The position numbers and the translations under genes are program-made. A DNA stretch of 62,271 nucleotides, filler included, from Nemertoderma westbladi (Eukaryota > Animalia > Xenacoelomorpha): assembly GCA_032718475.1 (NCBI GenBank). It is 3 parts of 3 records of this genome, joined end to end, with 100 filler letters (N's around TTAATTAATTAA, not from the genome) between each part and the next. Parts side by side here need not be neighbours in the genome. Positions count along the whole stretch, not along the records: positions 20,468 to 46,586 come from JAUCBJ010003257.1; 2 more parts are not named here. One strand, given 5' to 3'. Below, in pieces: positions 12,751 to 60,065 of this stretch. Position 1 is the first letter of the stretch; every line of letters starts with the position of its first letter. The notes under the pieces were generated by a model, which worked only from the letters and a program-made list of their open reading frames with translations, had not been told where the DNA came from and ran no database searches.

Positions 12751-13941
12751 TAAAAAAACTAGAATCACTATTTTTCCTGATTGGTTTTAAAGAGGGTACC
12801 TAACAATGGAAACCACAACAGCTGGATAAAATAGCAGTAGCCCTTAATATTACTAGAATCACTGTTTCAGAAGCCCTTAAAACAACCAGAGGCACTATCT
12901 GGTAACACAGGGCCAGTGACAGAACTCACAAGCATCCATTAAATTGACAAACACTGTGGGTGAGCCACAAAAACAAGTGAGCTTTGAATATGAGTACCAA
13001 TCTCAACCTCGTGTCTGACTGTCAGTCTGCCTGTCGGTTGGTTGGTCGGTCCATCTAATCTTTGAATGCTAATACTGTAACTCAACGAATCTTTGATGAA
13101 GTTATACCAAACGTGGTACCCAAATAGTATGACAAAAGTTTAGAAAGTTCTCAGAATTTTGGTGGTTCACCACTAGAAGGCACTAAATATCACTCCATGT
13201 CTAGGCTAATAACTTTTGACTCTAATCTACTTCTTATAGAAGTGGATTAGGTTGGATAGTGAATTTCAGTGACAGTGGCGTAACCAGACCATGGCGAGTC
13301 GGGGCGACCACCCCGGGGCGCCAGCTCGGTGATGAAACACGAAACGAAACACATGAAACCCCATCCACAAGTTCATTATATTTCCAACACAGTATTGTAA
13401 ATGATATTTACGGGACAACTAACTGGCAGAGAGAAATGAATAAGATTGGGTAGTGCAATATACATACATCAATATAATGTACATACTGTACATATTGTAC
13501 TATTAAATCTAGCAAATTTTTTTTATCTTGCAAAATTTAGATACTACTGTCTGAGTGTAGGTTAGAGGGAAATTCGAAATAGGAATTGCTGGTAACTTAC
13601 TGTTGTAGCATTGTTGGGTATTTTAGGACTAGTAATTTGTTTACATCCAACTGACCGTATTTCTTCGAATAAGAGCCCACCCCCTCGAGTAAACGCTCCC
13701 AGGCCATCCTCATCCAAGCATCTTAATTAAACGCCTTCCTCGAATAAACGCCACGGTGTTTATCAATATGTATTTCACCATGTACTGGAATATAAGGTCA
13801 AAAAAGTCCCCCCCCCCCCCCCCCCATAAAAAAAATTCGACAAATAGCAGTGATATTTAGTGATTAATTTATTTTATTTTCTTACATTTTTATACTGTAC
13901 ATCTGTAATAATTTAAAATCTAATTAGTTAGTATTGATGTA

Positions 13942-15056: not shown

Positions 15057-15974
15057 TACAATTTTTGACTGTGTTTGTTATTGTTTCTGTAGTTTCTTTA
15101 ACTGTACATCAAAATTCAACCAAATGACATCACTAAGGGGGGGAATAGAATGTACTAATAATTGATGACATAATTCATATAATTAATAATTAAGTAAAGC
15201 TAAAAATGCGGTGTTTGCCAAATGCTGGTAGAGCCCTACCCCTCCTCCAGCAAATTTAGGTATTTCCTAGCGGCAAACACGTGGGTAATACCTACGTTTA
15301 GTTTTGTGAATATCATTAGGTATATACCACGTGTTTACTGGCAATCATGTCCAGTAATTACCTAGTAAACACCTCTATAAAAGACCTATGTTTAAGGTAT
15401 TTACCATGTGTTTGCTTTTCGTGAATACGGCTTTGGGCGAGTTGTTTGCCAGTAGATAATACCCAGCTAGTAACTACCTAGCTGGGTAATACCTACTTTC
15501 GTGAATACGGCTTCTGGTGTCGATTAGAACTCTGAACTCGTTTTGAAGAAATTATGAGCGATTACCCTTTAGTTTTCGTAAAATTACTCCAAAATGGAAA
15601 ATGATAGAAGATAAGTGTTTTATACCATTAGATAGGCCGGAAAATTCTCTACCAGAATCGACCATAAAAAATGGATTTTTCTGATACTATCTATACGTTT
15701 CTACTTGACACGCCACAATTATAAGTAACGCGAAACATCTTTGCTTACAAGAACAGATGTAATAATGTTATAATTTTTAATAAAAGTAAGTAAGGTATAG
15801 AGGTTATTAATACCTTCGCTAAGAAAACCCTCGTAAAGTTGCCATTTTAAATATTCAATTTTTTTCGCTTCTTATTGTTAATGGGGGGCGGGGGGGGGGG
15901 CTTATCAACTCTCGCCCCGGGGCGCCACTAACCCTGGATACGCCACTGGTCAGTGACAAGTGGCTGAACTGGTT

Positions 15975-16020
15975 AGCGCTACTGATGAGGCCTGATAGGC
16001 TGAAACGTACGCAGAGCGCT
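15975..16020 (+). ncRNA. Minimal type I hammerhead ribozyme, mutated copy (family 2)
   Basis: AGCGCTA-CTGATGA-GGCCT-GAT-AGGCT-GAAA-C-GTAC-G-CA-GAGCGCT. Core present but the cleavage triplet is GCA. Confidence 0.75.
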
Positions 16021-16321
16021 GGTTCAACCCCCAGTGACGCGCTTTCCCATTTTTTCCATTTCTGAACAAAACCATAATACTACATCTTTAATTACAGTTG
16101 CATTAACAGCTCAACTCCAATTTATTTATTTAATATTATTACCTGGCAGCAATACTCGAGCTGAATATTTATTTATTTGTACTTTCCTCCTGTTTCACTC
16201 TAACATACTTGAGGCCGGTAGGTCCGCTGTTAGAGATAGGATATGCAACTTGAGACAGCCTGTTCAATAGAAGTGGATTACGTGGGATAGTGAATGTCAG
16301 GGGCAAGTGGCTGAACTGGTT

Positions 16322-16367
16322 AGCGCTACTGATGAGAACTGATAGGCTGAAACGTAGGTATAGCGCT
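16322..16367 (+). ncRNA. Minimal type I hammerhead ribozyme, second tandem copy (family 2)
   Basis: AGCGCTA-CTGATGA-GAACT-GAT-AGGCT-GAAA-C-GTAG-GTA-TAGCGCT. Stem I and the GUA triplet are intact, stem II is mismatched. 347 bp from the first copy. Confidence 0.75.
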
Positions 16368-16479
16368 GGTTCAACCCCCGGTGACGCGCTTTCTCATATC
16401 TGAACAAAACCATAATATTACATCTTTAATTACAGTTGCATTAACAGCTCAACTCCAATTTATTTATTTAATAACGTTT

Positions 16480-18001: not shown

Positions 18002-18937
18002 TCAGAACTCCATTATTCTTGATATTTCATATGCGTTTTTATCCATTTCGACATTTTTGAAGTGATTTGCCTTTACTGTGAATGGGCCATATTTACCAAA
18101 CGCTTGGTACAGCAGGAGATATGATCGTGGGGGGACAGTAGTCGATATAGTCAATGTAGTTTCTTCTTTAAATGTCTGAGATGTTGAAGTTCCCCAATTG
18201 TAGCCAGTAGTACTGCTAACACTGGCAGAGAAAACGCCGCCAAAATTTAATCCGGCCTCCAATGATGTTGATGTATTCTCCATGTAGCTTTCGGTTTCTG
18301 TGGTACTCATACCGATTTTCCGAGCAAACCTCATAGAACCTTCAGCAGAGGAATCCAAGTTATCAAACGAACTAATTAACTCCCAGTAGTCAATCGGAGA
18401 CCAATCTTCCTTACTACCTTTCTTCCACCCACGAAATTGCTCCCAAGCAAGAATTTTAGCTCCATCAGAGGTCACGTGACCTTGTACCTGCGCTGTGAAA
18501 TAGTTACCGAAAGCGTGACTTTTTATCGCGATACGATCTTCATTCTCGTTTATTTCTATGATAAATTTTTCCCAACTACCTATAGCTTGTCTATCAGCTC
18601 TTATCTGCCCATCGGCCTGTCTCGATATGTATAATTTATTCCAAGTCATCAATGCTACCGTGCCATCCTCCATAAAAATTGGCTCAAAATAATTCAAATG
18701 TCCCAGTTGAGTGCCAGACTGATAGATGTTGTAGTAATCATTGGTTGCTAACAGTTTATCCCCATGTGCCGCTATCAGTATCATGTACTGCCTTCCAAGT
18801 ATAATATCAGAGCCGTCCCCTTCGGATCCTAGAAGATATCTCCACAACTGTTCTCGGTTTGTGACTTGCTTCCAGACACCGAAGACACCATCTAATAGTG
18901 CAAATGTCGATAATAAAAATATAACAAAACGAAACAT
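18002..18937 (-). CDS. Secreted fascin-like beta-trefoil plus aerolysin/ETX-MTX2-like pore-forming protein (311 aa, intronless)
   Basis: Signal peptide MFRFVIFLLSTFALLDGVFG. Three fascin-type repeats (DGTVALMTWNKLYIS...IGSWEKF; RIAIKSHAFGNYFTA...LAWEQF). S/T-rich strands flank an amphipathic hairpin TSLEAGLNFGGVFSASVSSTTGYNW, followed by a VPP motif. Confidence 0.8.
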   Translation of the reverse strand: MFRFVIFLLSTFALLDGVFGVWKQVTNREQLWRYLLGSEGDGSDIILGRQYMILIAAHGDKLLATNDYYNIYQSGTQLGHLNYFEPIFMEDGTVALMTWNKLYISRQADGQIRADRQAIGSWEKFIIEINENEDRIAIKSHAFGNYFTAQVQGHVTSDGAKILAWEQFRGWKKGSKEDWSPIDYWELISSFDNLDSSAEGSMRFARKIGMSTTETESYMENTSTSLEAGLNFGGVFSASVSSTTGYNWGTSTSQTFKEETTLTISTTVPPRSYLLLYQAFGKYGPFTVKANHFKNVEMDKNAYEISRIMEF

Positions 18938-19084
18938 TTTTATGTATTATGGTATTATGGTTTTGTATTATTTCCTAAAATTAACTTTAGAAAGACTACT
19001 TCAGTAATTTTGGGTTATGATGTGATGTGACCCTGGAAAACTATTAATTATATATAATTTTTAATTAGTTATATTGATAATTCT

Positions 19085-22375: not shown

Positions 22376-23970
22376 TGTCTGAGAACTTCCCGTGTTACGC
22401 ATAATTATTTCTACTGAGAACTTCCCGTGTTACGCATAATTATTTCTAGGAGATCTTCCCGTGTTCCTATAACAATTTATACTGAGAACTTCCCGTGTTC
22501 CTGTAATTATTTCTACTGAGAACTTCCCGTGTTCCTATAACAATTTATACTGAGAACTTCCCGTGTTCCTGTAATTATTTATACTGAGAACTTCCCGTGT
22601 TCCTGTAATTATTTCTACTGAGAACTTCCCGTGTTCCTGTAATTATTTCTACTGAGAACTTCCCGTGTTCCACATAATTATTTCTACTGAGAACTTCCCG
22701 TGTTCCTGTAATTATTTATACTAAGAACTTCCCGTGTTTTTGTAATTATTTCTACTGAGAACTTCCCGTGTTCCTATAAATATTTTTTACTGACCAGTCA
22801 TGTGTCCCTGAGAACTTATCGTGCTCCTGTAATTATTTCTACTTGAGAACTTTCCGCCCGTGTTTCTATAAATATTTTTTTACCGGTCAGCCTTTGTCCT
22901 TGAGAACTTCTCGTGTTCCTATAATTATTTCAACAGATAACTTTCCGTGTTCCTGTAATTATTTCTACTGAGAACTTCTCGTGTTCCGATAATTATTTCA
23001 ACAGAGTACTTTTCGTATTCCTGTAGTTATTTATACTGATAACTTCCCGTGTTCCTGTAATTATTTCTAATGAGAACTTCCCGTGTTCCTGTAATTATTT
23101 CTACTGAGAACTTCCCGTGTTCCTGTAATTATTTCTACTGAGAACTTCCCGTGTTCCTGTAATTATTTCTACTGAGAACTTCCCGTGTTCCTGTAATTAT
23201 TTATACTGAGAATTTCCCGTGTTCCTGTAATTATTTCTACTGAGAACTTCCCGTGTTCCTGTAATTATTTCTACTGAGAACTTCCCGTGTTCCTGTAATT
23301 ATTTCTACTGAGAACTTCCCGTGTTCCTGTAATTATTTCTAATGAGAACTTCCCGTGTTCCTGTAATTATTTCTACTGAGAACTTCCCGTGTTCCTGTAA
23401 TTATTTATACTGAGAATTTCCCGTGTTCCTGTAATTATTTCTACTGAGAACTTCCCGTGTTCCTGTAATTATTTCTACTGAGAACTTCCCGTGTTCCTGT
23501 AATTATTTCTAATGAGAACTTCCCGTGTTCCTGTAATTATTTCTACTGAGAACTTCCCGTGTTCCTGTAATTATTTCTACTGAGAACTTCCCGTGTTCCT
23601 ATAACAATTTATACTGAGAACCTCTCGTGTTCCTATAATTATTTCAACAGATAACTTTCCGTGTTCCTGTAATTATTTCTACTGAGAACTTCCCGTGTTC
23701 CTATAACAATTTATACTGAGAACTTCCCGTGTTCCTATAATAATTTATACTGAGAACTTCCCGTGTTCCTATAATTATTTCTACTGAGAACTTCCCGTGT
23801 AATTATTTCTACTGAGAACTTCCCGTGTTCCTGTAATTATTTCTACTGAGAACTTCCCGTGTTCCTGTAATTATTTATATTGAGAACTTCCCGTGTTCCT
23901 GTAATTATTTATACTTGAGAACTTCCCAACCGTTTTACCGACCAGCCTTGTGTCCCTGAGAACTTCTCGT
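22376..23970. repeat. 34-bp satellite, ~45 copies
   Basis: Unit CTACTGAGAACTTCCCGTGTTCCTGTAATTATTT. Period 34 (AACTTC at 23041 and 23075). Confidence 0.97.
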
Positions 23971-32600: not shown

Positions 32601-32742
32601 TATGTGGCTAAACCTGATGTGCGAAACCCTGGCGAAAATAACAAACTAATTGCGGAAGATTATTTGATACGCATTTCAATACAATATTTATATACAACAT
32701 ATGAAATAAATATGTATCACAATGTGTCACTTTAAATTGTGG

Positions 32743-33081
32743 ACAGTAACAATGTGTTGGCAAGCTGATTTTTTCGAAGTGTTTGTTATTATACATTTAT
32801 TATAGGAAGGGATCTAGGGGTCTTAACCTCGAATGATAAGTTTATTTTAACGAAAATAACTTATCTTTTATTGGCGCAATTGTAGGACTAATCCCATCAC
32901 ATGCATACTTTTTAACTGGATAGTGTACAAATTTAGGGATCGCGTAATTTTTTATTGAAATTAATATCACATATCTCATATCTTATGTATCAATTGCGTC
33001 AATAAAAGATAAGTTATTTTCGGTAAAATAAACTTATCATTCGAGGTTAAGACCCCTAGATCCCTTCCTATAAAATGTATA
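32743..33081. mobile_element. tRNA-hammerhead repeat family, truncated copy with inversion
   Basis: Matches 44915-44967 plus 44556-44735, then an inverted segment. 14-bp TSD ACTTTAAATTGTGG at 32729-32742 and 33082-33095. Confidence 0.85.
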
Positions 33082-33230
33082 ACTTTAAATTGTGGGACAT
33101 AACAAACAGAATCTGAAAAGTTTTTAAATAAAAACGCTGAGGAAATTCTAAATTTTAAAATATTATCTAGACGTTGCTATGGTAAATGAGATAAGTTAAT
33201 GTTCAGAAAATATAGTTACACTCTAGTTCC

Positions 33231-33882
33231 ACTACTACTACTACTATTATCGGCATGCTGCATTGCAGCTGCATTTTTAAGAATGCTGTGCCGGCTTGTC
33301 GACAAAATTGCGCCGCCACAACTCCCTATCACCCTTGACATTTGCTAGATCATCCGCATCTTCAAGGCCGGTGTCCTTTAAGATGCGTCTCAAGAAAGTC
33401 ATGGGCTGTCCACCATGCTTATTCACTCCATGAGGCTGCCAAAGTACAAGATTATGCACTGGCTGGTCCTCACGGTGAAAGCAATGTCCTGCAAAGCGGA
33501 GGCGATTTTGTTCTAGTGTCAAGCTTGGGGGAACCAATGAGACACCTCCAATGTTATATAGTGTCTGGTTGGAGATGTGTGCATTGTACTTGACACAATG
33601 AACCCGGCGTAGCATTCTTGTGAATGTGCCATCCAGAGATTTGGTGTCCTCAGCAGTTAGAGCCCAGCATGGACTCCCATAGAGGAGTACTGGAACTACT
33701 GCTGCTCTAAATAATCGGACCTTAAGTTTCCGATTAATTCTCGGTGACTTCCAAATCCTGGAAAGCCTATTCAAGGCTGCCCATGCCTTTCCCTTACGTA
33801 TTCGAAGGTCCTCACCTGACTTCCGGATCCATGATCCCAGGTATAACAGAAGTCGTCCACATGCTCAAGCATACCATCTTTT
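33231..33882 (-). mobile_element. 5'-truncated RTE LINE
   Basis: ORF 33277-33774 is nearly identical to 53191-53685. (TAC)n tail. Confidence 0.93.
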
Positions 33883-35420
33883 GAACCCTAGTTCCAAGAT
33901 CCAATGGCCTAGGCCTACTCGATTTAACTTGGATCAAAAACTTCATAGCAAAATTCCCAAATAAAGTTGCTTTATCACCATTTTTCCTGGTTGCTATGCT
34001 ACCCCGGTTCACCATTTTCCAGGTTGATATGCTACCCCGGTTCTAAAACTATCTTCCCAAAGGGTAAACAATTTATCCAACTGTGGTTTTTCAAACTATC
34101 TTGCAATACCGATAAATTCAGAAAAATATTTTTCGGCTGTAAGTCCCGCCCATGTGAAGAATACCATTTTATATATGAAGATTTTTAATTTTTTTAAATT
34201 TATCTTTATTAAGTGTTTTATAGTGCTTATTTCTGTCGTATAACCTGTATAGATACTTATTCGTTTATTGTTTTGGTTAGATTCAGCCCTTCTGTAACCT
34301 ATGTTTTTGGTGAAACCTGGTATTCCTACCTGATAAGATCTTTATCTTATCTATATCGTAATCTGGTAACTGCAAAGTGAAATATAGCGGAAGAAAGTCT
34401 GGTATTCTTCACATGGGCTGTAAGTTCAGTATTCATGGTAGTTTGATTGTAAATCTGATTTCAGTGTGCCTTTTTACGGCATGACAGATTTTAAAAATAT
34501 TTTAACAGTGATGTTATTTCACCAATCCAATACGTATTGACTGATTGATAAAAAAATAAAAAGATTGCCTCCAGGGTTATGATATATTATTGTCCATTAA
34601 GTGTATGTTTAGTACAGTTTAGGCCCCCATTTCATGGGTAGCATCTTATTTTGGCCATAACTTCGCAGGTTTTGATCCCAAGTAGTTTATTTTGGGCTCA
34701 TTCTGTTCGGAATATAACGATTTTATTCTAAGGAAATTGTATTATTTTTTATTATTCAACAAAGCACTGTCACTTTTAATAAAATCTAGTTTGTCTGTAT
34801 GTCTGTCTGTCGGTCTGACTAACCGGCAATCTGTCATTCAAATATAATAAAAGGGAACACAATCTAGCTAAAAGTTTAGCTATTGGGGTTTTCCTGTTCG
34901 CAGAATTAATTTCCAGGGTCAGTTTTAACATTTGATGAATTCCAAATTGTCTGTCGGCGCTGTCGGTTATATTTTGACGGACAGACTGACAACAGACAGA
35001 AAGGATAATGACAAATTTGGATAATGGCACCAGGAATGAAGTCACCGACCACGAAATTCCGTATAGGGAATTTTTTTAGACAGATAGTATGCTTTTTATT
35101 GACAGACAAACATACAAACGGACAGAACGACAGTCAAATGGGCAGAAAGCCATATCTTGAGCAAAAGTAAGAGAGATCTTGCTAAACGGTTTTCCAATTT
35201 GAAATCTTGATATTAAATTGTAAGAAAAAATGTGAAAGATAATTTTGAAGGGGGGGGGGGGGGGGGGGGTGCAATTACGTTGCTAACGGCAATTACGTAT
35301 CAAATTCATCCAAATCTTTGTATTTCTGTAATTAGTATCGGATTCGCGCAATGTTAAATAAACGAATTTCCTTTCATTGATATGTTTGCTTAAATATGGT
35401 TGAAAGTTTCATTAGCAACT

Positions 35421-35778
35421 TATAGTAAGGGATCTAGGGGTCTTAACCTCGAATGATAAGTTTATTTTACCGAAAATAACTTATCTTTTATTGGCGCAAT
35501 TGTAGGACTAATCCCATCACATGTGTACTTTTTAACCGGGTAGTGTACAAATTTAGGAATCGCGTAATGTTTATTGAAATTAATATCTTATATCTCTCCA
35601 AACCACGCACGCGTTTCGAACTTACTGGGTCTCTTCAGCAAGGGTGGTGTAGGATTCGAACCTGAGACCTCGAGGTGGAAGCCAAGACAACAACCAGTCT
35701 AGAGGTTAAGACCCTTAGATCCCTTCCTATAAATAACAAACACCTCGAAAAACACAGCTTGCCAACACATTGTTACTA
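35421..35778. mobile_element. tRNA-hammerhead repeat family copy with inversion and degenerate hammerhead (35602-35648, minus)
   Basis: 12-bp TSD TCATTAGCAACT (35409-35420 / 35779-35790). Minus strand reads GGTTCGAATCC...CTGAAGA-GACC-CAGTAA-GTTC-GAAACGCGTG. Inverted segment from ~35701. Confidence 0.88.
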
Positions 35779-36277
35779 TCATTAGCAACTAACAGACAAC
35801 ATGTAGCTATTGCAACATGTAGCATTGAAACATGTGGCAACATATAGCATTGAAAAGGTAAAGTAGGATTATTGGAAACGAGTGAACTAATTTATCATAA
35901 TCACTGCAGATGACAGCGGCAGCGCTAGTGAGACTGATGGAGATTAATTAATTGTTGGTCGATCCGATTAGGCAATAATACAGTTATATCTAACTTTATC
36001 TGTTCTTATTATATTAAATCCCACCAATAATTAAAAAGTACTTCCAACCACAATGGCTGTCTGTTACGACAAATGTAATAAGTTTCCAATAGGAAACATT
36101 AACAAGACATATTTGATGAAATTTTATGACATCTTACTAAACATTATTACGATTCCAATAATAATTCCTGAAAAAACAACGATTTTGATACATTTTAGAC
36201 GGACCGGTAATTATTGCAATGCCGCTATATACTGTACCTCTAAACCCTCACATTTTTGAAATCAGCAATAAAGCAGC

Positions 36278-36545
36278 CCGTCAATAACCCTCAATACAAC
36301 ATACTGTTGTTCAATGGCCAGTTTGCCAATAACCCTCAATACAACATACTGTTGTTCAATGGCCAGCCCGCCAATAACCCTCAATACAACATACTGTTGT
36401 TCAATGGCCAGCCCGCCAATAACCCTCAATACAACATACTGTTGTTCAATGGCCAGTTTGCCAATAACCCTCAATACAACATACTGTTGTTCAATGGCCA
36501 GCCCGCCAATAACCCTCAATACAACATACTGTTGTTCAATGACCA
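36278..36545. repeat. 42-bp tandem repeat, ~6.5 copies
   Basis: Unit CAATAACCCTCAATACAACATACTGTTGTTCAATGGCCAG(CCC/TTT)G. Partial copy at 45829-45973. Confidence 0.95.
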
Positions 36546-41806: not shown

Positions 41807-43998
41807 TCGGACAGTGGAACCATGTCGAGCGAGCTCGAACCATGTCGAGCGAGCTATGAAAATGGAACCATGTCGAGCGAGCTCTGTCAATGGGACCATG
41901 TCGAGCGAGCCGGGTCAGTCGAACCATGTCGAGCTAGCTCGGATAGTGGAACCATGTCGAGCGAGGTCGGACAATGGAACCATGTCTAGCGAGCTCGGAC
42001 AATGGAATCATGTTGAGCGAGCTCGGTCAGTCGAACCATGCCGAGCTAGCTCGGATAGTGGAACCATGTCGAGCAGTTCGAACAGTGGAATCATGTCGAG
42101 CGAGCTCGAACAGATGAACCATATCGAGCGAGGTCGGACAATGGAACCATGTCGAGCGAGCTCGAACAATGGAACCATGTCGAGCGAGCTCGGACAATGG
42201 AACCATGTCGAGCGAGCTCGGACAATGGAACTATGTCGAGCGAGCTCGGACATAGGAACCATGTCGAGCGAGGTCGGTAAATGGAACCATGTCAAGCGAG
42301 CTCGAACAATGGAACCATGTCGCGAAATTAGGTGGGACAGTGGAACCATGTCGAGCGAATTCGGACAATGGAACCATGACGAGCGAGCTCGGACAGTCGA
42401 ACCATGTCGAGCGAGATCGGACAGTTGAACCATGTACGAGAAATGTTTGTCGGACAGTGGAACCATATCGAGCGAGATCGGGCAATGGAACCATATCGAG
42501 CGAGCTCGGAAATTGGAACCATGTCGAGCGAGTTCGGAAAATGGAACCATGTCGAGCGAGCTCGGACAATGGAACCATTCGAACGAGCTCGGACAGTGGA
42601 ACCATGTCGAGCGAGTTCGGACAATGGAACCATTGGAACGAGCACGGACAGTGGAACCATGTCGAGCGAGCTCGGACAATGGAACCGTGTCGAGCGAGCT
42701 CGGACAATGGAACCGTGTCGAGTGAGCTCGGACAATGGAACCATTCGAGCGAGCTCGGACAGTGGAACCATGTCGAGCGAGCTCGGACAATGGAACCATG
42801 TCGAGCGAGCTCGGAAAATGGAACCATGTCGAACGAGCTCGGACAATGGAACCATGTCAAGCGAGCTCGGACAATGGAACCATGTCGAGCGAACTCGGAA
42901 AATGGAACCGTGTCGAGCGAACTCGGAAAATGGAACCGTGTCGAACGAGCTCTGACAATGGAACCATGTCGAGCGAGGTCGTACATTGGAACCATGTCGA
43001 GCGAGCTCGGACAATGGAACCATGTCGAGCGAGCTCGGACAATGGAACCATTCGAACGAGCTCGGACAATGGAACCATGTCGAGCGAGCTTGGACAACGG
43101 AACCATGTCGAGCGAGCTCGGACAATGGAACCATGTCGAGCGAGCTCGGACAATGGAACCATGTCGAGCGAGCTCGGACAACGGAACCATTCGAGCGAGC
43201 TCGGACAGTGGAACCATGTCAAGCGAGCTCGGACAATGGAACCATGTCGAGCGAGCTCGAACAATGGAACCATGTCGAGCGAGCTCGGACAATGGAACCA
43301 TGTCGAGCGAGCTTGGACAACGGAACCATGTCGAGCGAGCTCGGACAATGGAACCATGTCGAACGAGCGCGGACAATGGAACCACGTCGAGCGAGCTCGG
43401 ACAATGGAACCATGTCGAACGAGCTCGGACAATGGAACCATGTCGAGCGAGCTCGGACAATGGAACCATGTCGAGCGAACTCGGAAAATGGAACCGTGTC
43501 GAGCGAACTCGGAAAATGGAACCGTGTCGAACGAGCTCGGACAATGGAACCATGTCGAGTGAGCTCGAATATTGGAACCATGTCGAGCGAGCTCGAACAA
43601 TGGAACCATGTCGAGCGAGCTCGGACAATGGAACCATGTCGAGCGAGCTTGGACAACGGAACCATGTCGAGCGAGCTCGGACAATGGAACCATGTCGAGT
43701 GAGCTCGGACAATGGAACCATGTCGAGCGAGCTTGGACAACGGTACCATGTCGAGCGAGCTCGGACAATGGAACCATGTCGAGCGAGCTTGGACAACGGG
43801 ACCATGTCGAGCGAGCTCGGACAATGGAACCATGTCGAGTGAGCTCGGACAATGGAACCATTCGAACGAGCTCGGACAATGGAACCAAGTCGAGTGAGCT
43901 CGAATATTGGAACCATGTCGAGCGAACTCGTACAGTGGAACCATGTCGAGCGAGGTCGGACAGTGGAACCATGTCGAGCGAGGTCGGACAGAGGAACA
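41807..43998. repeat. 28-bp GC-rich satellite, ~78 copies
   Basis: Unit GGACAATGGAACCATGTCGAGCGAGCTC. The 28-aa periodic ORFs equal three units. Confidence 0.97.
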
Positions 43999-44741
43999 AT
44001 GTATAAGGCTATATATGTACCAAGTTTAATACCCTTCAAACATGTCTGACAGACAGAAAAGATTGAAATGGGTGCTAGCCCGTATGCTAAATTTGCTTAC
44101 TTACTTCGTGGCACGCCCCACAGCGGTACCCATAACCTAAGCTAGCTTACTACTACTACTAGGATCGGCATGCTGCATTGCAGCTGCATTTTTAAGAATG
44201 CTGTGCCGGCTTGTCAACAAAATTGCACCGCCACAACTCCCTATCACCCATGACATTTGCTAGATCATCCGCATCTTTAATACCAGTGTTCTTTAAGATG
44301 CGTCTCAAGAAAGTCATGGGCTGTCCACCATGCTTATTCACTCCATGAGGCTGCCAAAATACATGATTATGCACTGGCTGGTCCTCACGGCGAAAGCAAT
44401 GTCCTGCAAAGCGGAGACGATTTTGTTCTAGTGTCAAGCTTGGGGGAACCAATGAGACACCTCCAATGTTATATAGTGTCTGGTTGGAGATGTGTGCATT
44501 GTACTTGACACAATGAACCCGGCGTAGCATTCTTGTGAATGTGCCATCCAGAGATTTATTATAGGAAGGGATCTTGGGGTCTTAACCTCGAATGATAAGT
44601 TTATTTTACCGAAAATAACTTATCTTTTATTGGCGCAATTGTAGGACTAATCCCATCACATGCGTACTTTTTAACCGGGTAGTGTACAAATTTAGGAATC
44701 GCGTAATTTTTTCTTGAAATTAATATCTCATATCTCTCCAA

Positions 44742-44784
44742 ACCACGTACGCGTTTCGACCTTACTGGGTCTCATCAGCGTGGT
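44742..44784 (-). ncRNA. Intact minimal type I hammerhead ribozyme (family 1)
   Basis: ACCACG-CUGAUGA-GACC-CAGUAA-GGUC-GAAA-CGCG-UA^CGUGGU: 6-bp stem I, 4-bp stem II, full core, palindromic minimal stem III, GUA site. Confidence 0.9.
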
Positions 44785-44846
44785 GTCGGATTCGAACTTG
44801 GGACCTCGAGGTGGAAGCCGAGACTACAACCACTAGGCCACAGGTT
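44785..44846 (-). promoter_or_regulatory. tRNA-derived (Gly-TCC-like) internal Pol III promoter
   Basis: A box TGGCCTAGTGG (44830-44840), loop CTTCCAC, B box GTTCGAATCC (44788-44797). Acceptor stem does not pair, so it is not a functional tRNA. Confidence 0.75.
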
Positions 44847-46586
44847 CTTGAGATATGGAGTATTAATTTCAAAGCCAGCTGCCATTTTATTAGCCCCTGA
44901 TTTTTTATTATTGATAGTAACAATGTGTTGGCAAGCTGTATTTTTCGAGGTGTTTGTTATTATACATTTATTATAGGAAGGGATCTTGGGGTCTTAACCT
45001 CGAATGATAAGTTTATTTTACCGAAAATAACTTATCTTTTATTGGCGCAATTGTAGGACTAATCCCATCACATGCGTACTTTTTAACCGGGTAGTGTACA
45101 AATTTAGGAATCGCGTAATGTTTATTGAAATTAATATCTTATATCTCTCCAAACCACGCACGCGTTTCGAACTTACTGGGTCTCTTCAGCAAGGGTGGTG
45201 TAGGATTCGAACCTGAGACCTCGAGGTGGAAGCCAAGACAACAACCAGTCTAGAGGTTAAGACCCTTAGATCCCTTCCTATAAATAACAAACACCTCGAA
45301 AAACACAGCTTGCCAACACATTGTTACTATCATTAGCAACTAACAGACAACATGTAGCTATTGCAACATGTAGCATTGAAACATGTGGCAACATATAGCA
45401 TTGAAAAGGTAAAGTAGGATTATTGGAAACGAGTGAACTAATTTATCATAATCACTGCAGATGACAGCGGCAGCGCTAGTGAGACTGATGGAGATTAATT
45501 AATTGTTGGTCGATCCGATTAGGCAATAATACAGTTATATCTAACTTTATCTGTTCTTATTATATTAAATCCCACCAATAATTAAAAAGTACTTCCAACC
45601 ACAATGGCTGTCTGTTACGACAAATGTAATAAGTTTCCAATAGGAAACATTAACAAGACATATTTGATGAAATTTTATGACATCTTACTAAACATTATTA
45701 CGATTCCAATAATAATTCCTGAAAAAACAACGATTTTGATACATTTTAGACGGACCGGTAATTATTGCAATGCCGCTATATACTGTACCTCTAAACCCTC
45801 ACATTTTTGAAATCAGCAATAAAGCAGCCCGTCAATAACCCTCAATACAACATACTGTTGTTCAATGGCCAGTTTGCCAATAACCCTCAATACAACATAC
45901 TGTTGTTCAATGGCCAGCCCGCCAATAACCCTCAATACAACATACTGTTGTTCAATGGCCAGCCCGCCAATAAAAGATAAGTTATTTTCGGTAAAATAAA
46001 CTTATCATTCGAGGTTAAAGACCACTAGATCCCTTGCTATAATAAAAATATAATAACAAACACCTCGAAAAATACAGCTTGCCAATACATTTTTACTATC
46101 CAGAGATTTGGTGTCCTCAGCAGTTAGAGCCCAGCATGGACTCCCGTAGAGGAGTACTGGAACTACTGCTGCTCTAAATAATTGGACCTTAAGTTTCCGA
46201 TTAATTCTCGGTGACTTCCAAATCATGGAAAGCCTATTCAAGGCTGCTCATGCCTTTCCCTTACGTATTCGAAGGTCCTCACCTGACTTCCGGATCCATG
46301 ATCCCAGGTAACAGAAGTCGTCCACATGCTCAAGCATACCATCCTTTGAGCTTATGCTCATCCGATCAGAGACTTGCTGAGGACTTTCAAAGTTAACTGT
46401 CAGAATTTTGGTCTTTCTGGAGTTAATAAAAAGACCAACACTAGAAGCAGCATGTTCTAATGAGCTGAGGAGCCGTTGGGCTCCCTCTAATGATTCTGAG
46501 AGTACTCCCAAGTCATCAGCAAAGTCTAGATCAGTTAGGTACTTGGCAGGATTTCCTCGACTTCTGGAGCCAGTAGGTGGAGTTAT

Positions 46587-46686: not shown

Positions 46687-49154
46687 TACCTTCGGTATAT
46701 CAAGAATATTGGGTTGCGGGGTTATTTATCGTTATTCCAAATATAATAATTCATCAACCATATTATGAAGAACTGACAGTAAATAGCAGTATAAAACAAC
46801 AACTGAACACTGATTGTTACGAGTTTGCAATGTTTCAGCAGTCAGGATGTATGATCAGTTAGCAGTAGTCTTTAGGTATGCCGTTATGTCAGCAGTTAAA
46901 GGATATATGCCCTTTATAATTAAACCTACTAGTATACGACTAAAAAACAGTAAGGCACAAAATACTTCCAAGCCGTTCTTTCTTAGGCTCAGGACTGAAT
47001 GTAAACACTACACATAGGCATTGCGTCATTTCTCGGAAATTTTCTGTACAAGGAGCCACAAAAACGCTCTCATTGGCTGACTGAACTGAGAGACGCCGTA
47101 GAACAAAGGAAATCAACACGTATGAATGTCAGCTGTTAACCGTAGTCATAGTAACTACTGTTCAAGAGTAGCTATCACCCTTTTGCGTCACGAATTGCCA
47201 TAGAATCATAAAATATGCCTTTCACAGTACACATACGGAGGAAATAGGTCTTAGATCCTCTAAAAACACCGATACAGCAATAATACGGTCTCTTACACTT
47301 ATTAAATCAACTACAGAGTATTTTAATGTAAAAGATAATAAAAATAACGGGGCAATTCAGCAAAGGCTTTTACAAAATCGTTAGAGCTCTTATTTGCTCT
47401 AGGTCAGTAGTCAGTTAGTAACCAGTAGTCAGTAGCATTTTTTTCTTCTTACAGTATAATAATCAAGTCTTACGACTAGCTAATTACGATTCAATGACAA
47501 TACCAGAACCGGCCTATGGTTGTCCAGAGTATGGCCGAATTGACTATACTACTGGGCATACTAATATAATCGGCATGAAGCATTGAAGCTGCACATTGAA
47601 ATGCTATGCTGGCTTAACAAAAATATTTTGTCACCACCATGATGTCCATAATTGGCAAGCCCAATGCAGAGTGCATTAATATGCTATTCCGGCTTAACAA
47701 AGTTGCACCGCCACAACTCCCTAACCCCTCATGTCTTTCGCGAGACTATATATTTTCAAGGCCAGTAATCCAGTATCCTTTAAGAGGCGTCTCACAAACG
47801 TCATGGGCTGTCCACCAAGCTTATTTTCTCCATGGGGCTGCCAAACTACAAGATTATGCACAGGCTGGTCCTCACGGCATAAACAATGTCCTGCAAAGCG
47901 GAGGCGATTTTGTTCTAGTGTCAAGCTTGGGGGAACCAATGAGACACCTCCAATGTTATATAGTGTCTGGTTGGAGATGTGTGCATTGTACTTGACACAA
48001 TAAACCCGGCGTAGCATTCTTGTGAATGTGTCATCCAGAGATTTGGTGTCCTCAGCAGTTAGAGCCCAGCATGGACTCCCGTAGAGGAGTACTGGAACTA
48101 CTGCTGCTCTAAATAATCGGACCTTAAGTTTTCGATTAATTCTCGGTGACTTCCAAATCCTGTCATTGCCTGATAACTTTATAGAAGTAAAAGTGTCTGA
48201 GTCTGTACTCCCAGATATTCCCATTGGTGATATCTCCTTTGCAGAAGTGAAGGCTGCTGCAAAGAGCATTAAGACCAATCGTGCCAGTGGAGTAGATGGT
48301 GTTCCCCCTGAGGTCTTTAAAATACCTGAGTGTTTAAAGCTCATCTATCCCATCATAGTAGACATGTACCGTACAACGAGAGTCCCACAAGAAATGAAAA
48401 CAAATAAGTTGGTGCCAGTTCCCAAGAAGGGCAACCTAACACTCTATGGTTCTTTTCGGGGAATCTCATTAATCTCGATTGCTGCAAAGCTATACAATAG
48501 GATTCTATTAAATCGCATCAGAGATCCCATTGAGAGACTGCTCCGTTGAAATCAGAATGGGTTCCGTAAAGGTCGTGGGACCATGGAGCCCATTTTGGCA
48601 CTTAGAAGGATAATTGAAGAGTTATCAAAAAAGAAAGACAGGCATCTATTATTATTATTATTATTATTAAACACGGTGAAATATTATAAAAATGTTAACA
48701 CCGGAGAAAAACAACAAGGTACACTTACGGTAAAACCAAGTACACTAATAGTTGAATTGAAATCAGAAAAACACGAATAAATAAAATTGTGACCAATGCA
48801 TCTTAAGAAAATAAAAACGGACAGTACTTACTAAAGAGTGAAATCAAGCGGAAATTTAAACGGAAATGAAGTAAAAATATTGAAATTATGTATGTAAATA
48901 CTATAAACAGTACATTAGAGCAGCATATTATTAAAAATTTACAAATCTTATAAAAACGTAACAATATGCCATATTAAATTAAAAACGTATACATGAGTTC
49001 CAAGTAGTACAGTAGAACAAATGACATTATTACAAATATAGATATAGAAGGCAGATAACAATTAATAGTATGTAGAAATTATAATAGATATGATAAAAAC
49101 ATAAAGTAGAACAGATAAAAACATATATTATATTTACAGATAAAATTACAATAA

Positions 49155-51960
49155 TTACACTAAATTCCGGTTAAACTTACAAAAAGAAAGTAGGTTAATT
49201 TCTTTGAGTCTTAGAGAAAATAACAGTTTATTACGGCAATTTACAACTTCAGCTGGAAGCGAGTTCCAAATGGGCACCACTCTATGGGAAAAATTATTTT
49301 TGCACATCTGCAAGCGCGACTGTTTATGAAACAGTTTACGGTCGTGACCTCTCAACCCACCCCTAGGGGCCAAGGTAAAGAAGTGAGCGAAGTTTAGGTC
49401 GACTTCGTTGTTCGAAAGAGCGAAGGTCATCTTGAGGTCAAAAATTATGCGGCGCACTTCCAGGGGTTGAAGTTGTAATACGTTAATTCGATTCAAATAG
49501 CTTACTGTACAATCCAAATTACAACGTTTAAAAAGGCGACGCGTAAAATATCTCTGTACCCGCTCAAGTAAGTCTATACAACCTAAATGAAAAGGAGACC
49601 ATATAGGCGTACAGTACTCTAATAAGGGACGCACATAAGATTTAAAAGCCGTAATTAATGCAGAACGATTCGAAGTTAAAAAGCACTTGAAAATCAAATT
49701 TGTCATTTTTAGGGCCTTGGCAGCTTGTTCGCGACAATAAACATCGAAATTAAGAGAACTACACATTGTAATACCCAGGTCTCTACAGGAAGTGTCAATC
49801 TTTAAACATTTACCACCTAACATGTACTGCGTATCATTTCGGTCTGCCGAACCGATGTAAAGCACGGTGCACTTATGAGCAGCAATTTTGAGTTGCCATG
49901 TATCAGCCCACTTTTCCAAAGCAGATAAAGCTTCAGCGAGTTGCAAATTATCGGACGAGCGCGCATACAGCTTTACATCGTCGGCGAACAATTTGCATGA
50001 TACACTATTACCGATTATATCAGGTAGGTCATTAATAAACAACACAAACAATATTGGGCCAAGTACGCTACCTTGAGGGGTACATAGCAGACATCGGAAA
50101 AACTATTTCCAACAACAACACGTTGGCTACGATCAGATAAAAAAGCCGATAACCACAATAGTAAATCTCCAGATATACCATATGCCGATAATTCAGATAA
50201 TAACTTCCTATGTACAACAGAATCAAATGCTTTCGCAAAATCAATATAAATTGTGTCCGTGCTCTGTCGACTATCTAATAAATTGCACCAATCAGTTGTA
50301 CATTCCAATAATTGAGTACAGGTAGACCGTTTCTTTAAGAACCCATGTTGCGATTTAGATATGAGTTTATGAGAATATAAATAATCGAGCAATTTGTCCT
50401 TTATACACATCTCCATAATTTTGCATGCAATACAGGTCAAAGAAACAGGTCTGTAATTGTACGGGTCGGCAGCATCCCCCTTCTTATAGATTGGAACAAT
50501 GAATGCTGTTAACCAAATAGAAGGTAGACAATGGCTACTAAACGATATTTGGAAAATGGCCGCTAGAGGAGCTGCCAAGCACCGTGATAATCTAGAGAAG
50601 ATAATACTGGGGAAACCATCAGGCGTACGACTCGATTTACCTTCAAGTTTACGTAATATACAGGATACGTTTACCGGACTAAAATCAACATGAGACATAG
50701 AAATATGATAGGGAACACGCCGCTCAAAATTTGGTGTAGCACTGTTATCAACGGAAAAGTTTTCTGAGAATACCTTTGATAGAATACGGGCTTTCTCAAT
50801 ATCATCTACCACGGTTGCACCTTTAAATTTAAACGGTGAAACACCAGAATTAAGGTTACGTTTCGAATTAATATATGAAAAAATATCACCGATATTGCCC
50901 GAACTAAGAATCTTGTTTTCCCGAATACAGGCTGCCCTGAAGCAAGCCTGGGATACAGCTTTGGCGCATTTCTTATATTCAGAACTACCAGTTACGGTAT
51001 GACGTCGCCGCCATAAGCGTTTTTTCTTGCGTTGTAATAAGCGAACAAAATCAGGGAAAACCTTCTTCTTGCGCGGTGTCACAAAACTCTTAAAAGTAAC
51101 AAATCGTTCTATACCTGTACGTAGTGTAGCACTAAAAAAATCCCAAAAATCATCAACGGAAATACAAGAATCAAAATTAGTGTTCCAATCAATACTTTCC
51201 ATAAATATGGAGAATTCACTGTAGTTACCATTCTTAAAATCATAATAACCTACGTTATCATCAGATGACGGGCTACGATCAGGAGATAAAATATTAAAAA
51301 TTACAGATGCATGGTCACTAGTACTAAAATTATCAATAACATCTACATTAGAAACAAACATATCCTCACTTGAAAAAACTAGATCTAGAATGTTATTATC
51401 GCGGGTGGGTTTTAATTGTAACTGAGTTAAACCACTGTCCAGAAAACACTGGTTTAGTAAGTCGTAGTTAGCATATGTAGGATGTGTTAAGTTAAGCCAA
51501 TCGAAATCTGGTAAATTAAAATCACCATTAACGACACATGGGGTATTTACTTGACAGAGAAGAGATATGCATTCGGACAAGAGTTTATCAGTTTCAATGG
51601 TCGCGATGGTTCCTGATCGATATATACATATAAACCGACAGGGGGAGCTTCCAACTAGATCGATCGCTACCACCTCAGTATCTACAAAGCGAGCCGGTAT
51701 TTGAACCTGGACGCATTTGATGTCCAACCGGACAAGGACGGCAACTCCACCACCACGAGAGGGTCTATCTTTGCGGAAGACACGATATTGCCCATTGTTG
51801 CTCACCATCTTGTCTGGGATTGTATCTGTGAGCCAGGACTCGGTGACAGCCAGGATCCCATATTTATTAGGTTGTAAGAAGAGCTCGAGGTCAGTTAGTT
51901 TATTGTTCAGCGACCGCGCATTCACTAAGCAGCATTCAATGAATGGCTCCTTGACGGGTT
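49155..51960 (-). pseudogene. CR1 ORF2 (APE endonuclease + reverse transcriptase), one frameshift near 50080
   Basis: NARSL, VTESWL, GGGVA, GDFN, NILDL, SDH; NYRPVSLT, QHGF, YIDFAKAFD, PQGSVLGP (frameshifted), LFADD, RDLG, RPLLEY, LERVQR, RGH. Confidence 0.95.
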
Positions 51961-51972
51961 GTTTCCCTCCGT

Positions 51973-52549
51973 TTAAACGTTTCCCGACGAAGAAGACGTC
52001 GGATCGGCAGTTGCGCCATTTGTATTCTGTGGCGTCGTCCGAGGATCCGGCGTACGGTGCTCCTGCCTCCCGGGCTCCGTCGTCCGCGGCGAGGGGGACA
52101 CGGGAGACGGGTTTCTCGTTGATCGGTGTTGTCGTTGGTTACGAACAGCTTCCCGTTTATGGTACTGCTGCTCGGCCTGTAGTCGGGTAAGATCATGGTC
52201 GATATAAACCCCAGTATGCGCAGTGGATTTCCGGAGTTTTTTCTTTTGTTCCATGATATTATTCTTGGAATCCATGCTAGAGAGGCGGACAATGAAACGC
52301 GTAGGTTTATTATCCCTCGCCGGTAGACTGGAAACCACTGAAAATACCACATCTTTCTGATCGAACTCTGACTCCAACAGATAAGAGATTTCTCCTTTGT
52401 TAGAATCGTCGGTTGATACCGGTAAATCTCGAATGACGATGTTGAGCTCACGTTTCCGCTGCTCTTGAACCTCGCGATCCACATCCTCCGCGGTCATTGG
52501 GACCGCAGTAGACGCGGGCCGGGTTTTGTTCTTCTTTTCTGGTTTCTGG
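51973..52549 (-). CDS. CR1 ORF1 C-terminal part
   Basis: EQRKRELNIVIRDLP...KKLRKS...VYIDHDLTRLQ, typical of an ORF1 C-terminus, directly upstream of ORF2. Confidence 0.78.
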
Positions 52550-54319
52550 ATCTGGCTGTTATCTTTGTTGACTTCTTCAAGGCCTTTGATTCAGTCTCTC
52601 GCTCACGTATGTTCAGCATACTTTCATTATATGGGATTCCTGATAAAATTATTGCAGCAATCAGATCAGTATACGATGGTTCGACAACATTTGTGTCTTC
52701 TGTTGACGGTGACACAGAACCATTTGAAGTGTTATGGGGCGTCCTCCAGGGAGACACACTTGCACTATTCTTGTTCATAATTGTTGTTGACTATGTTCTA
52801 CGCATGTCCTTAGATCATCATAATGAAGATGGGGTGATGATAACTCCACCTACTGGCTCCAGAAGTCGAGGAAATCCTGCCAAGTACCTAACTGATCTAG
52901 ACTTTGCTGATGACTTAGGAGTACTCTCAGAATAATCACTAGAGGGAGCCCAACGGCTCCTCAGCTCATTAGAACATGCTGCTTCTAGTGTTGGTCGTTT
53001 TATTAACTCCAGAAAGACCACAATTTTGACAGTTAACTTTGAAAGTCCTCAGCAAGTCTCTGATCGGATGAGCATAAGCTCAAAAGATGGTATGCTTGAG
53101 CATGTGGATGACTTCTGTTACCTGGGATCATGGATCCGGAAGTCAGGTGAGGACCTTCGAATACGTAAGGGAAAGGCATGGGCAGCCTTGAATAGGCTTT
53201 CCAGGATTTGGAAGTCACCGAGAATTAATCGGAAACTTAAGGTCCGGTTATTTAGAGCAGCAGTAGTTCCAGTACTCCTCTATGGGAGTCCATGCTGGGC
53301 TCTAACTGCTGAAGACACCAAATCTCTGGATTGCATATTCACAAGAATGCTACATCGGGTTCATTGTGTCAAGTTCAATGCACACATCTCCAACCAGACA
53401 CTATATAACATTGGAGGTGTCTCATTGGTTCCCCCAAGCTTGACACTAGAACAAAATCGCCTCCGCTTTGCAGGACATTGCTTTCGCCGTGAGGACCAGC
53501 CAGTGCATAATCTTGTACTTTGGCAGCCTCATGGAGTGAATAAGCATGGTGGACAGCCCATGACTTTCTTGAGACGCATCTTAAAGGACACTGGCCTTGA
53601 AGATGCGGATGATCTAGCAAATGTCATGGGTGATAGGGAGTTATGGCGGTGCAATTTTGTCGATAAGCCGGCACAGCATTCTTAAAAATGCAGCTGCAAT
53701 GCAGCATGCCGATCCTAGTAGTAGTAGTAGGAAAGCCTATTCAAGGCTGCCCATGCCTTTCCCTTACGTATTCGAAGGTTCTCACCTGACCTCCGTATCC
53801 ATGATCCCAGGTAACAGAAGTCGTCGACATGCTCAAGCATACCATTCTTTGATCTCATGCTCATTCGATCAGAGATTAACTGAGGATCTCTGATCTGGAA
53901 GGATCAATGATCTGGAAGGATTACTGATCTGGAAGGATCTCATTTCCACTGTCCGAGCTCACTTGACTTAGTAGTAGTAATAGTCGTAGGAGTATTTTAT
54001 TGTATTACAATATACAGTATATTATTATTACAGTATATTCATGTACAGTTTATATTCATTATAGATTATATTGCTGAAGATAAAAATACCGCGTCACCAA
54101 AAACATCCAACATTTAAAACGGCCTATAACTAACATTATAATAATGTTTTTTTTACTTTCACAGACAGAATTAAAATTTATTTATTATAGATACACCCGC
54201 GACTGGAGTAAAAGGTTTTAAATAAAAAGCCCAAAATGCAAATAATTAAGTGAATAGAAACATATAATGTAGTTCCCGACAACGCAACACCAATGATTAT
54301 ACAACTTCTTTCAGTTTCA

Positions 54320-59837: not shown

Positions 59838-60065
59838 CAGAACGTTCTGGAGACGCCCCCAGTTCGCCCCCAGAACGTTCTGGAGACGCCCCCAGTTCGC
59901 CCCCAGAACGTTCTGGAGACGCCCCCAGTTCGCCCCCAGAACGTTCTGGAGACGCCCCCAGTTCGCCCCCAGAACGTTCTGGAGACGCCCCCAGTTCGCC
60001 CCCAGAACGTTCTGGAGACGCCCCCAGTTCGCCCCCAGAACGTTCTGGAGACGCCCCCAGTTCGC
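59838..60065. repeat. 33-bp perfect tandem repeat, ~7 copies
   Basis: Unit CAGAACGTTCTGGAGACGCCCCCAGTTCGCCCC. Confidence 0.96.

Follow-up and report, generated by a model that had tools for sequence, protein, structure and literature searches.

A non-coding 412-bp repeat of Nemertoderma westbladi with a tRNA-like candidate promoter, a predicted hammerhead ribozyme and Penelope-like insertion ends

Here, we describe a repeat family found in a window of 62,271 nucleotides, filler included, that consists of three joined parts of the Nemertoderma westbladi genome assembly GCA_032718475.1 (positions 20,468-46,586 come from JAUCBJ010003257.1). The repeat is a non-coding unit of 411-412 bp in which A and B boxes resembling those of a tRNA gene stand directly upstream of a type I hammerhead ribozyme. 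We propose, with a probability of roughly 0.7, that the unit is likely transcribed by RNA polymerase III (Pol III), that its RNA is predicted to cut itself into unit-length molecules, which may circularize, and that it is likely inserted by the enzyme of a Penelope-like element. The family is real, very abundant and mobile, and it is probably functional. An initial annotation of the same DNA placed the A box, the B box and the hammerhead at coordinates that all match the sequence; its account lacked the anatomy of the insertions, which points to Penelope, a pair of 23-bp arms enclosing the promoter-ribozyme module, and a captured piece of flanking DNA.

The unit and its tRNA-like head

Positions within the unit are counted from +1 at position 44847 on the minus strand, and the copies are named U1, U2, U3 and U4 (Table 1). 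Self-comparison of the sequence bears out the claimed period of 412, and the longest frame starting with ATG in the doubled unit is 36 amino acids, in agreement with the earlier description of the unit as lacking an open reading frame (ORF). The head-to-tail repetition that had been described with this period amounts to 1.67 units in the window, namely the full unit 44558-44969 and a unit clipped at its 5' side from 44970 onwards, rather than an array.

The head is tRNA-like by its boxes and by a CU-UCC-AC loop, and in nearly all copies a G at 44798 (minus strand) gives the B box the canonical GGTTC start. Within the window, the A-box/B-box pattern matches the U1 site and two sites of another family, which is considered below. 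The T-stem no longer pairs in the tRNA fashion, and the head is not a foldable tRNA: ARAGORN called no tRNA genes in the window, and the Rfam tRNA model, searched against 901 bases, produced no match at the head. The glycine identity that had been suggested lacks support: in a local comparison of the head with 63 distinct tRNAs, most of them from prokaryotes or phages, Ala, Met and Gln scored best, followed by Gly, a ranking uninformative on isotype. A search for Pol III terminators, proposed at the same time, located a single run of four T residues (T4) on the transcribed strand, within an AT-rich hairpin; all three direct 3' ends of the U1, U3 and U4 insertions lie past it, that is, mobilized copies extend beyond this T4.

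Table 1. Coordinates of the 412-bp unit, its parts and its insertions
Feature	Position	Strand	Details
Complete unit U1, 412 bp	44558..44969	minus	GC 39%, no ORF, near the family majority sequence
tRNA-like head	44780..44847	minus	A box 44840-44830, B box 44797-44788
Type I hammerhead	44742..44784	minus	Stem I 6 bp, stem II 4 bp, stem III 2 bp, palindromic
Inverted arms, 23 bp	44872-44850 and 44736-44714 (span 44714..44872)	minus	87% complementary
AT-rich hairpin with sole T4 of transcribed strand	44591..44627	minus	T4 at 44615-44612, unit +233
A/C-rich 'tail'	44912..44972	minus	Between end sites A and B
U1 target duplication, right copy, 12 bp	44546..44557		Inside non-LTR retrotransposon
U1 target duplication, left copy, 12 bp	46098..46109		Sequence comparison
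Clipped unit U2	44970..~45253	minus	Starts at unit +12 to +16; broken hammerhead; chimeric
Inner inverted piece, unit 259-351	45253..45335	plus	Copied together with U3 locus
Captured flank, ~640 bp	45336..45973		Identical to 35785-36422; 45-bp satellite at end
Outer inverted piece, unit 213-347	45965..46097	plus	Sequence comparison
Insertion U3	35409..35790	minus	Direct 35696-35420 (unit 16-289), inverted 35702-35784; broken hammerhead
U3 target duplication, 12 bp	35409-35420 and 35779-35790		Sequence comparison
Insertion U4	32729..33095	minus	Direct 32977 to ~32746 (unit 112 to ~343), inverted 32991-33081
U4 target duplication, exact 14 bp	32729-32742 and 33082-33095		Sequence comparison

The hammerhead ribozyme and its predicted fold

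Stem I of the ribozyme pairs 44784-44779 with 44747-44742, the core consists of CUGAUGA and GAAA, stem II carries a 6-nt loop, and stem III is the palindrome ACGCGU with a 2-nt loop. The cut is predicted at a GUA triplet, between 44748 and 44747 (after unit +100). A structural hammerhead descriptor recovers this site alone in the window and no site in 100 dinucleotide shuffles; the hammerhead in the unit is not due to chance. A hammerhead also ranks best among Rfam families (Hammerhead_HH9, E 0.022 on the whole window and E 0.00031 on 901 bases).

According to PMC4209133, canonical animal type I hammerheads are distinct from the minimal hammerhead ribozyme (min-HHR) of Penelope, which has a helix II of 7-8 bp, an extra base between positions 9 and 10.1, and a helix III that is absent or tiny. 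By these definitions, helices of 6, 4 and 2 bp represent the canonical animal form; the min-HHR geometry was rejected for the unit, where helix II has 4 bp and no extra base lies between 9 and 10.1. The ribozyme, previously called an intact minimal hammerhead, is therefore an intact type I, and "minimal" only in the looser usage of PMC8490949, which extends the term to hammerheads whose stem III is very short.

The predicted fold of the unit is better than that of shuffled sequences, both in linear form (z = -3.2, with none of 100 shuffles as good) and as a circle (z = -2.5, none of 60). In the folded circle, stems I and II have pairing probabilities of 0.76-1.0, and stem III one of 0.0 as a monomer; two copies co-fold via a 6-bp stem III at -44.3 kcal/mol, against -18.0 per monomer. 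With 2 bp and a 2-nt loop in stem III, dependence on dimers is likelier here than in the retrozymes of corals or mussels. In the predicted fold, a 5-bp helix that uses the end of the B box, together with the 23-bp arms, would extend stem I and leave the tRNA head as a bulge. The upstream arm does not reach past the predicted start site, so that the arms would pair mainly in multimers or circles; they could also be the relic of an old inversion.

Target duplications and the ends of the insertions

Mobility of the element, as claimed initially, is well founded: each of the window's three insertions is flanked by a target duplication (12, 12 and 14 bp), and an empty target site is present in contigs from public sequencing runs. 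Each of the three contains an inverted 5' piece, and one of them also a partial tandem. Two sites account for their outer ends: site A is unit 288-300 (44972-44960 and again 44560-44548), and site B is unit 343-348 (44917-44912). All six outer ends lie at one or the other, one of each per insertion, a clustering with P = 8e-5 relative to uniform ends, calculated from three events and with the sites defined afterwards. Among other copies, four of the six ends listed on the 3' side of the element (44906, 44909, 44958 and 45330) are within 6 nt of these sites, and the other two, 44627 and 45056, are away from them.

Features reported for Penelope in PMC8557442 include partial tandems, inverted 5' copies and a tail of 30-40 bp at either end, and the Penelope protein is described in PMC11167929 as extending both strands and initiating at two internal sites in an AC-rich stem-loop. 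Target duplications, combined with a 5' piece in inverted orientation and with two end sites around an A/C-rich tail, form the footprint described for Penelope-like elements.

The 5' starts of the direct parts differ between U3 and U4. U3 starts at +12 to +16, near the predicted start of Pol III transcription, with its A box clipped, as in U2; U4, with its start 11 nt past the predicted cut, has neither head nor ribozyme. These starts, two cases only, would fit the copying of uncleaved RNA in U3 and of cleaved RNA in U4.

A composite insertion with captured flank

U1 sits in an insertion of 1540 bp (44558-46097), bounded by a 12-bp target duplication, inside a very abundant retrotransposon without long terminal repeats (non-LTR) that we take to be RTE-like. 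The empty-site joint (44545>46098, with 12 shared letters) occurs in four of four public runs. Along the minus strand, the insertion comprises an inverted piece, the ~640-bp flank, a second inverted piece, the clipped U2 and the full U1.

The captured flank has its source in the U3 locus, 9.5 kb away: 44971-45973 and 35420-36422 differ at 3 positions in 1003 bp, all of them in the unit part, in the last 105 bp. We regard U2 as a chimera because all three differences from the U3 locus fall where U2 matches U1; its 3' part matches U1 and its 5' part U3. The new DNA thus appears to have exceeded one unit before a switch to the U3 locus, the point of which lies somewhere from about unit +139 to +185.

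The defects of U2 comprise a GUG cut triplet, a mismatch in stem II, a 4-nt insertion in stem I and a partial A box. With this second ribozyme broken and the A box clipped, release of the ~412-nt monomers that the initial annotation envisaged from tandem arrays is not expected at the U1/U2 locus.

The family in public sequencing runs

Family-wide data come from public sequencing runs (X1, X2, X3 and X5 among them) that were compared with the window. The unit, whole or partial, is present in 7 of the 12 runs listed (five studies, none recorded as RNA). Summed depth in X1 is 3.0-6.4e5 in bins of the unit and 14-180 in the captured flank, and in both X1 and X3 the unit exceeds the captured flank by about four orders of magnitude, figures that express depth and not copy number. 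In X2, possibly an RNA run, the depth is 112.6 for the long interspersed nuclear element (LINE) and 13.8 for the unit, a ratio that resembles those of DNA runs and gives no evidence on expression.

Conservation of the core was assessed on a table of sites varying in at least 5% of depth. Positions 45120 and 45124 (private to U2), variants confined to X5 and a 9-letter loose end at 44706 (an indel effect) were removed from the run counts. Eight sites of the unit vary at this level in X1, none of them in the 43-nt ribozyme, and alternative letters account for at most 0.4% of depth at five listed core or stem sites in X1 and X3. Both boxes and the entire hammerhead core are intact in the family majority sequence. 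One X2 contig of 441 nt begins and ends with the same 30 letters, forming a closed cycle of 411 nt with an intact core, which implies tandems or circles elsewhere.

A proposed cycle and the evidence against it

Pol III would start just 5' of the A box and read through the single T4 into the next tandem unit. The hammerhead is predicted to cut after unit +100, probably best as a dimer held by the palindromic stem III, and the resulting monomers would end, on the 3' side, with the promoter sequence, an arrangement described for Sm-alpha. By analogy with the retrozyme literature, the long extension of stem I may hold both ends together for ligation by a host ligase. The junctions suggest that a Penelope-type enzyme would then nick both strands 12-14 bp apart and that cDNA would be primed on each strand at one of two internal sites flanking the A/C-rich tail, a mode of priming that would yield the direct copy together with the inverted 5' piece. 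At the U1 locus, where the structure itself is observed, a cDNA of ~520-570 nt may have carried along the ~640 bp of flank after the switch to the U3 locus.

Several observations weigh against this proposal. On the transcribed strand, depletion of T4 runs is not significant (P = 0.55). The Rfam check, for which the initial annotation had called, ranked a hammerhead first at 26.6 bits, under the gathering score of 52. In Xenopus, in vitro cleavage was reported for one of nine predicted retrozyme dimers in the sections of bioRxiv 10.64898/2026.07.22.740005 that deal with it. Preferential conservation of the core is likewise not significant (0 of the 8 variable sites in the 43-nt ribozyme, P = 0.41), so that the figures speak for a homogeneous family and do not establish conservation of the core in particular. 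The closed 411-nt contig is equally expected from tandem arrays of DNA. X5 yields a contig of 1831 nt at a depth of 401 with a rearranged copy whose hammerhead core is broken (on window 44715-44823), which suggests a dead copy carried inside another repeat. The tail measures ~45-55 nt here compared with the published 30-40 bp for Penelope, and none of 11 window ORFs scanned (of 56 ORFs of at least 100 amino acids) matches the GIY-YIG family; no autonomous Penelope was seen in the window. Finally, none of the contigs listed from public runs spans the composite insertion, which leaves this assembly as the sole source for the captured flank.

Alternative explanations

If the family were instead a retrozyme-like satellite whose promoter or ribozyme is vestigial, amplified mainly as tandem arrays of DNA, transcribed by passive read-through and only occasionally retroposed, then its homogeneity would fit a recent expansion of arrays, and the closed 411-nt cycle and a core conserved no more than the background would fit as well. 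Animal retrozymes, moreover, do not seem to carry promoters, as stated in the relevant part of PMC7761336. We nevertheless consider this account unlikely: the majority sequence has both boxes and the complete core intact, three dispersed insertions with target duplications occur within 62 kb, and U3 and U4 each have a 5' junction just within one of the two predicted RNA 5' ends.

The Penelope-like anatomy of the insertions would also suit a unit that is the pseudo-LTR (pLTR) or the 3' stub of an autonomous Penelope-like element, the copies being truncated insertions of it. Of 57 Xenopus retrozyme families, 24 are reported as homologous to transposable elements, nearly all of them Penelope pLTRs (bioRxiv 10.64898/2026.07.22.740005), and a helix III that is small and palindromic occurs in some hammerheads of Penelope (PMC4209133). 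However, there is no ORF within any of the three duplication-bounded insertions, and in none of the three does the unit flank an ORF with reverse transcriptase (RT) and GIY-YIG domains. The unit abuts itself at 44970/44969 and forms a closed 411-nt cycle in X2, and the share of aligned contigs that continue into unlike sequence is 0 in X1, 0 in X3, 0.03 in X2 and 0.1 in X5. Together with the 4-bp helix II and the absence of an extra base at 9-10, unlike min-HHRs, these findings make it quite improbable that the unit is simply such a part, though it may descend from a pLTR.

A tRNA-derived short interspersed nuclear element (SINE) that incidentally carries a hammerhead and was moved by the abundant non-LTR element around U1 would agree with target duplications of 12-14 bp, with the location of U1 inside that very abundant LINE and with the inverted pieces, as 5' inversions also occur with LINEs, but is very improbable in view of the lack of a poly-A or microsatellite tail, the absence of similarity between the unit and four LINE 3' regions found in the window (with scores in the range of shuffles), the position of the tRNA head internal to the inserted DNA, and direct and inverted pieces of overlapping sequence, both of which terminate at the tail sites.

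Other promoter-ribozyme combinations

A second family, with two copies on the plus strand (15949-16135 and 16296-16473) that are 89% identical and 347 bp apart, has the order A box, hammerhead core in place of the anticodon arm, B box and AT-rich tail. Its pattern has two matches in the window and none in 100 shuffles. Copy 1 is damaged at the cut triplet and copy 2 in stem II, Rfam has no match on either copy, and 44 bp of the spacer are found again at 13236-13279. If this family is genuine, cutting would split the promoter sequence and circularization would rejoin its halves. A scan for the same topology found six viral loci by pattern match alone.

Scans for a B box combined with a hammerhead returned 6 viral and 89 metagenome loci, 4 of which (of 95) pass a stem filter. 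In two of them (L019 and L059) the hammerhead comes after a complete tRNA gene, in L004 no tRNA was called, only L083 appears to have a SINE-type head, and none of the four belongs to the 412-bp family. L083:780-925 (minus strand) joins an unrelated tRNA-like head, with A and B boxes and no tRNA called by ARAGORN, to a type I hammerhead whose stem III is palindromic; the metagenome contig has a terminal redundancy of 127 nt, a period of 1341 and internal tandem sub-repeats, shows no Rfam match at E 0.05, and is presumably of eukaryotic origin. Hammerhead cores directly after complete tRNA genes were observed at L002:548-690, L022:1239-1343, L059:1501-1600 and L019:347-480, the tRNA being Gln in three and Thr in one, mostly in phage-like tRNA clusters. 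A further metagenome locus, L046:1501-1549 (minus strand), with a long helix II and no helix III, resembles the Penelope min-HHR.

As a tentative and rather doubtful generalization, promoter-bearing retrozymes might be widespread, mostly unrecognized "Penelope SINEs" that captured tRNA promoters several times independently, use two-strand priming at the tail ends and are able to take adjacent host DNA along to other sites; the 412-bp family, the second family of the window, L083 and Sm-alpha would all be included.

Further features of the window

The window has a GC content of ~38% and contains many satellites and pieces of non-LTR retrotransposons with RT and endonuclease Pfam matches. Pieces of one very abundant non-LTR retrotransposon with a TAG-repeat end lie at 33232-33884, 44148-44557 and 46098-46586, 47681-48162, and 52426-53729 (87-97% identical). 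A near-complete LINE occupies 49155-52138 on the minus strand, its endonuclease and RT domains split over two frames. Satellite arrays have repeats of 28 bp (41837-44002, 77 copies), 34 bp (22379-23927) and 33 bp (59838-60065). An uninterrupted ORF of 314 amino acids at 18005-18946 (minus strand) has a hydrophobic start and a weak FRG1-like match (E 2.3e-5, below cut-off); its second half is rich in Ser/Thr and may resemble pore-forming lectins. An ORF with a fibrinogen domain is also present.

Comparison with known systems

In Schistosoma, SINE-like tandem repeats are described in which a promoter is followed by a hammerhead and comes to lie at the 3' end of the cleaved RNA (PMC6765202). The tRNA origin, copy number and size of Sm-alpha are covered in PMC2770079 and PMC8490949, the former linking it to tRNA-Gln. 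The unit resembles Sm-alpha and Sj-alpha in having a type I hammerhead after A and B boxes of tRNA origin, in tandem arrangement and high copy, and in the place predicted for the promoter in the cleaved monomer, namely its 3' end; the size is similar (335 bp for a representative Sm-alpha, 411-412 bp here). It differs in having only weak similarity to Rfam Hammerhead_1 (19.9 bits on U2) and in its Penelope-type ends, which the accounts of Sm-alpha, in their relevant parts, do not give. By design, the unit would work like Sm-alpha, with which it is compared by description only.

Sm-alpha and animal retrozymes, proposed initially, are the right comparison. The suggestion of a probably undescribed family does not amount to a high degree of novelty: the design is known from schistosomes (PMC6765202), and the surprise is limited accordingly. 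Outside schistosomes, no description of the promoter-hammerhead design was found in a mostly open literature, Repbase and Dfam being outside the search.

Animal retrozymes are defined in PMC7229834, where Penelope partners are proposed and circles demonstrated. The unit agrees with non-LTR retrozymes of animals in its length (412 bp within 150-450 bp), non-coding nature, GC content below 50% (0.39), lack of an LTR, hammerhead of the canonical type I form, target duplications of more than 4 bp (12, 12 and 14 here) and strongly self-paired predicted circle. At least two consecutive intact ribozymes in tandem units characterize retrozymes; at this locus, that of U1 is intact and that of U2 broken. 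A difference is the internal A/B-box promoter, given that PMC7761336, in the part concerned, sees no promoters in retrozymes. Retrozymes are linked to pLTRs in bioRxiv 10.64898/2026.07.22.740005, the main text of which, as available, mentions neither tRNA, Pol III nor promoters.

With Penelope-like elements, the unit has in common the partial tandem, the inverted 5' copy, a tail that may be present at either end, insertion into AT-rich targets and the type I class of hammerhead; it differs by the lack of an ORF, the canonical form of the hammerhead, the longer tail (~45-55 nt) and the tRNA-derived promoter. Like tRNA-derived SINEs, as characterized in the pertinent sections of PMC8969392, it is short and non-coding, with tRNA-like spacing of the A and B boxes and target duplications, whereas its head is internal, its 3' tail is neither LINE-related nor A-rich, its insertions are tandem and inverted, and it contains a ribozyme. 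The same source allows that retrozymes may count as a new type of SINE.

Two questions about animal retrozymes are open, namely which polymerase transcribes them and which enzyme inserts them; Penelope has been proposed as the inserter from co-occurrence and pLTR similarity. With its explicit promoter and Penelope-type junctions, the family described here offers a compact, young and homogeneous substrate for testing both transcription and insertion.

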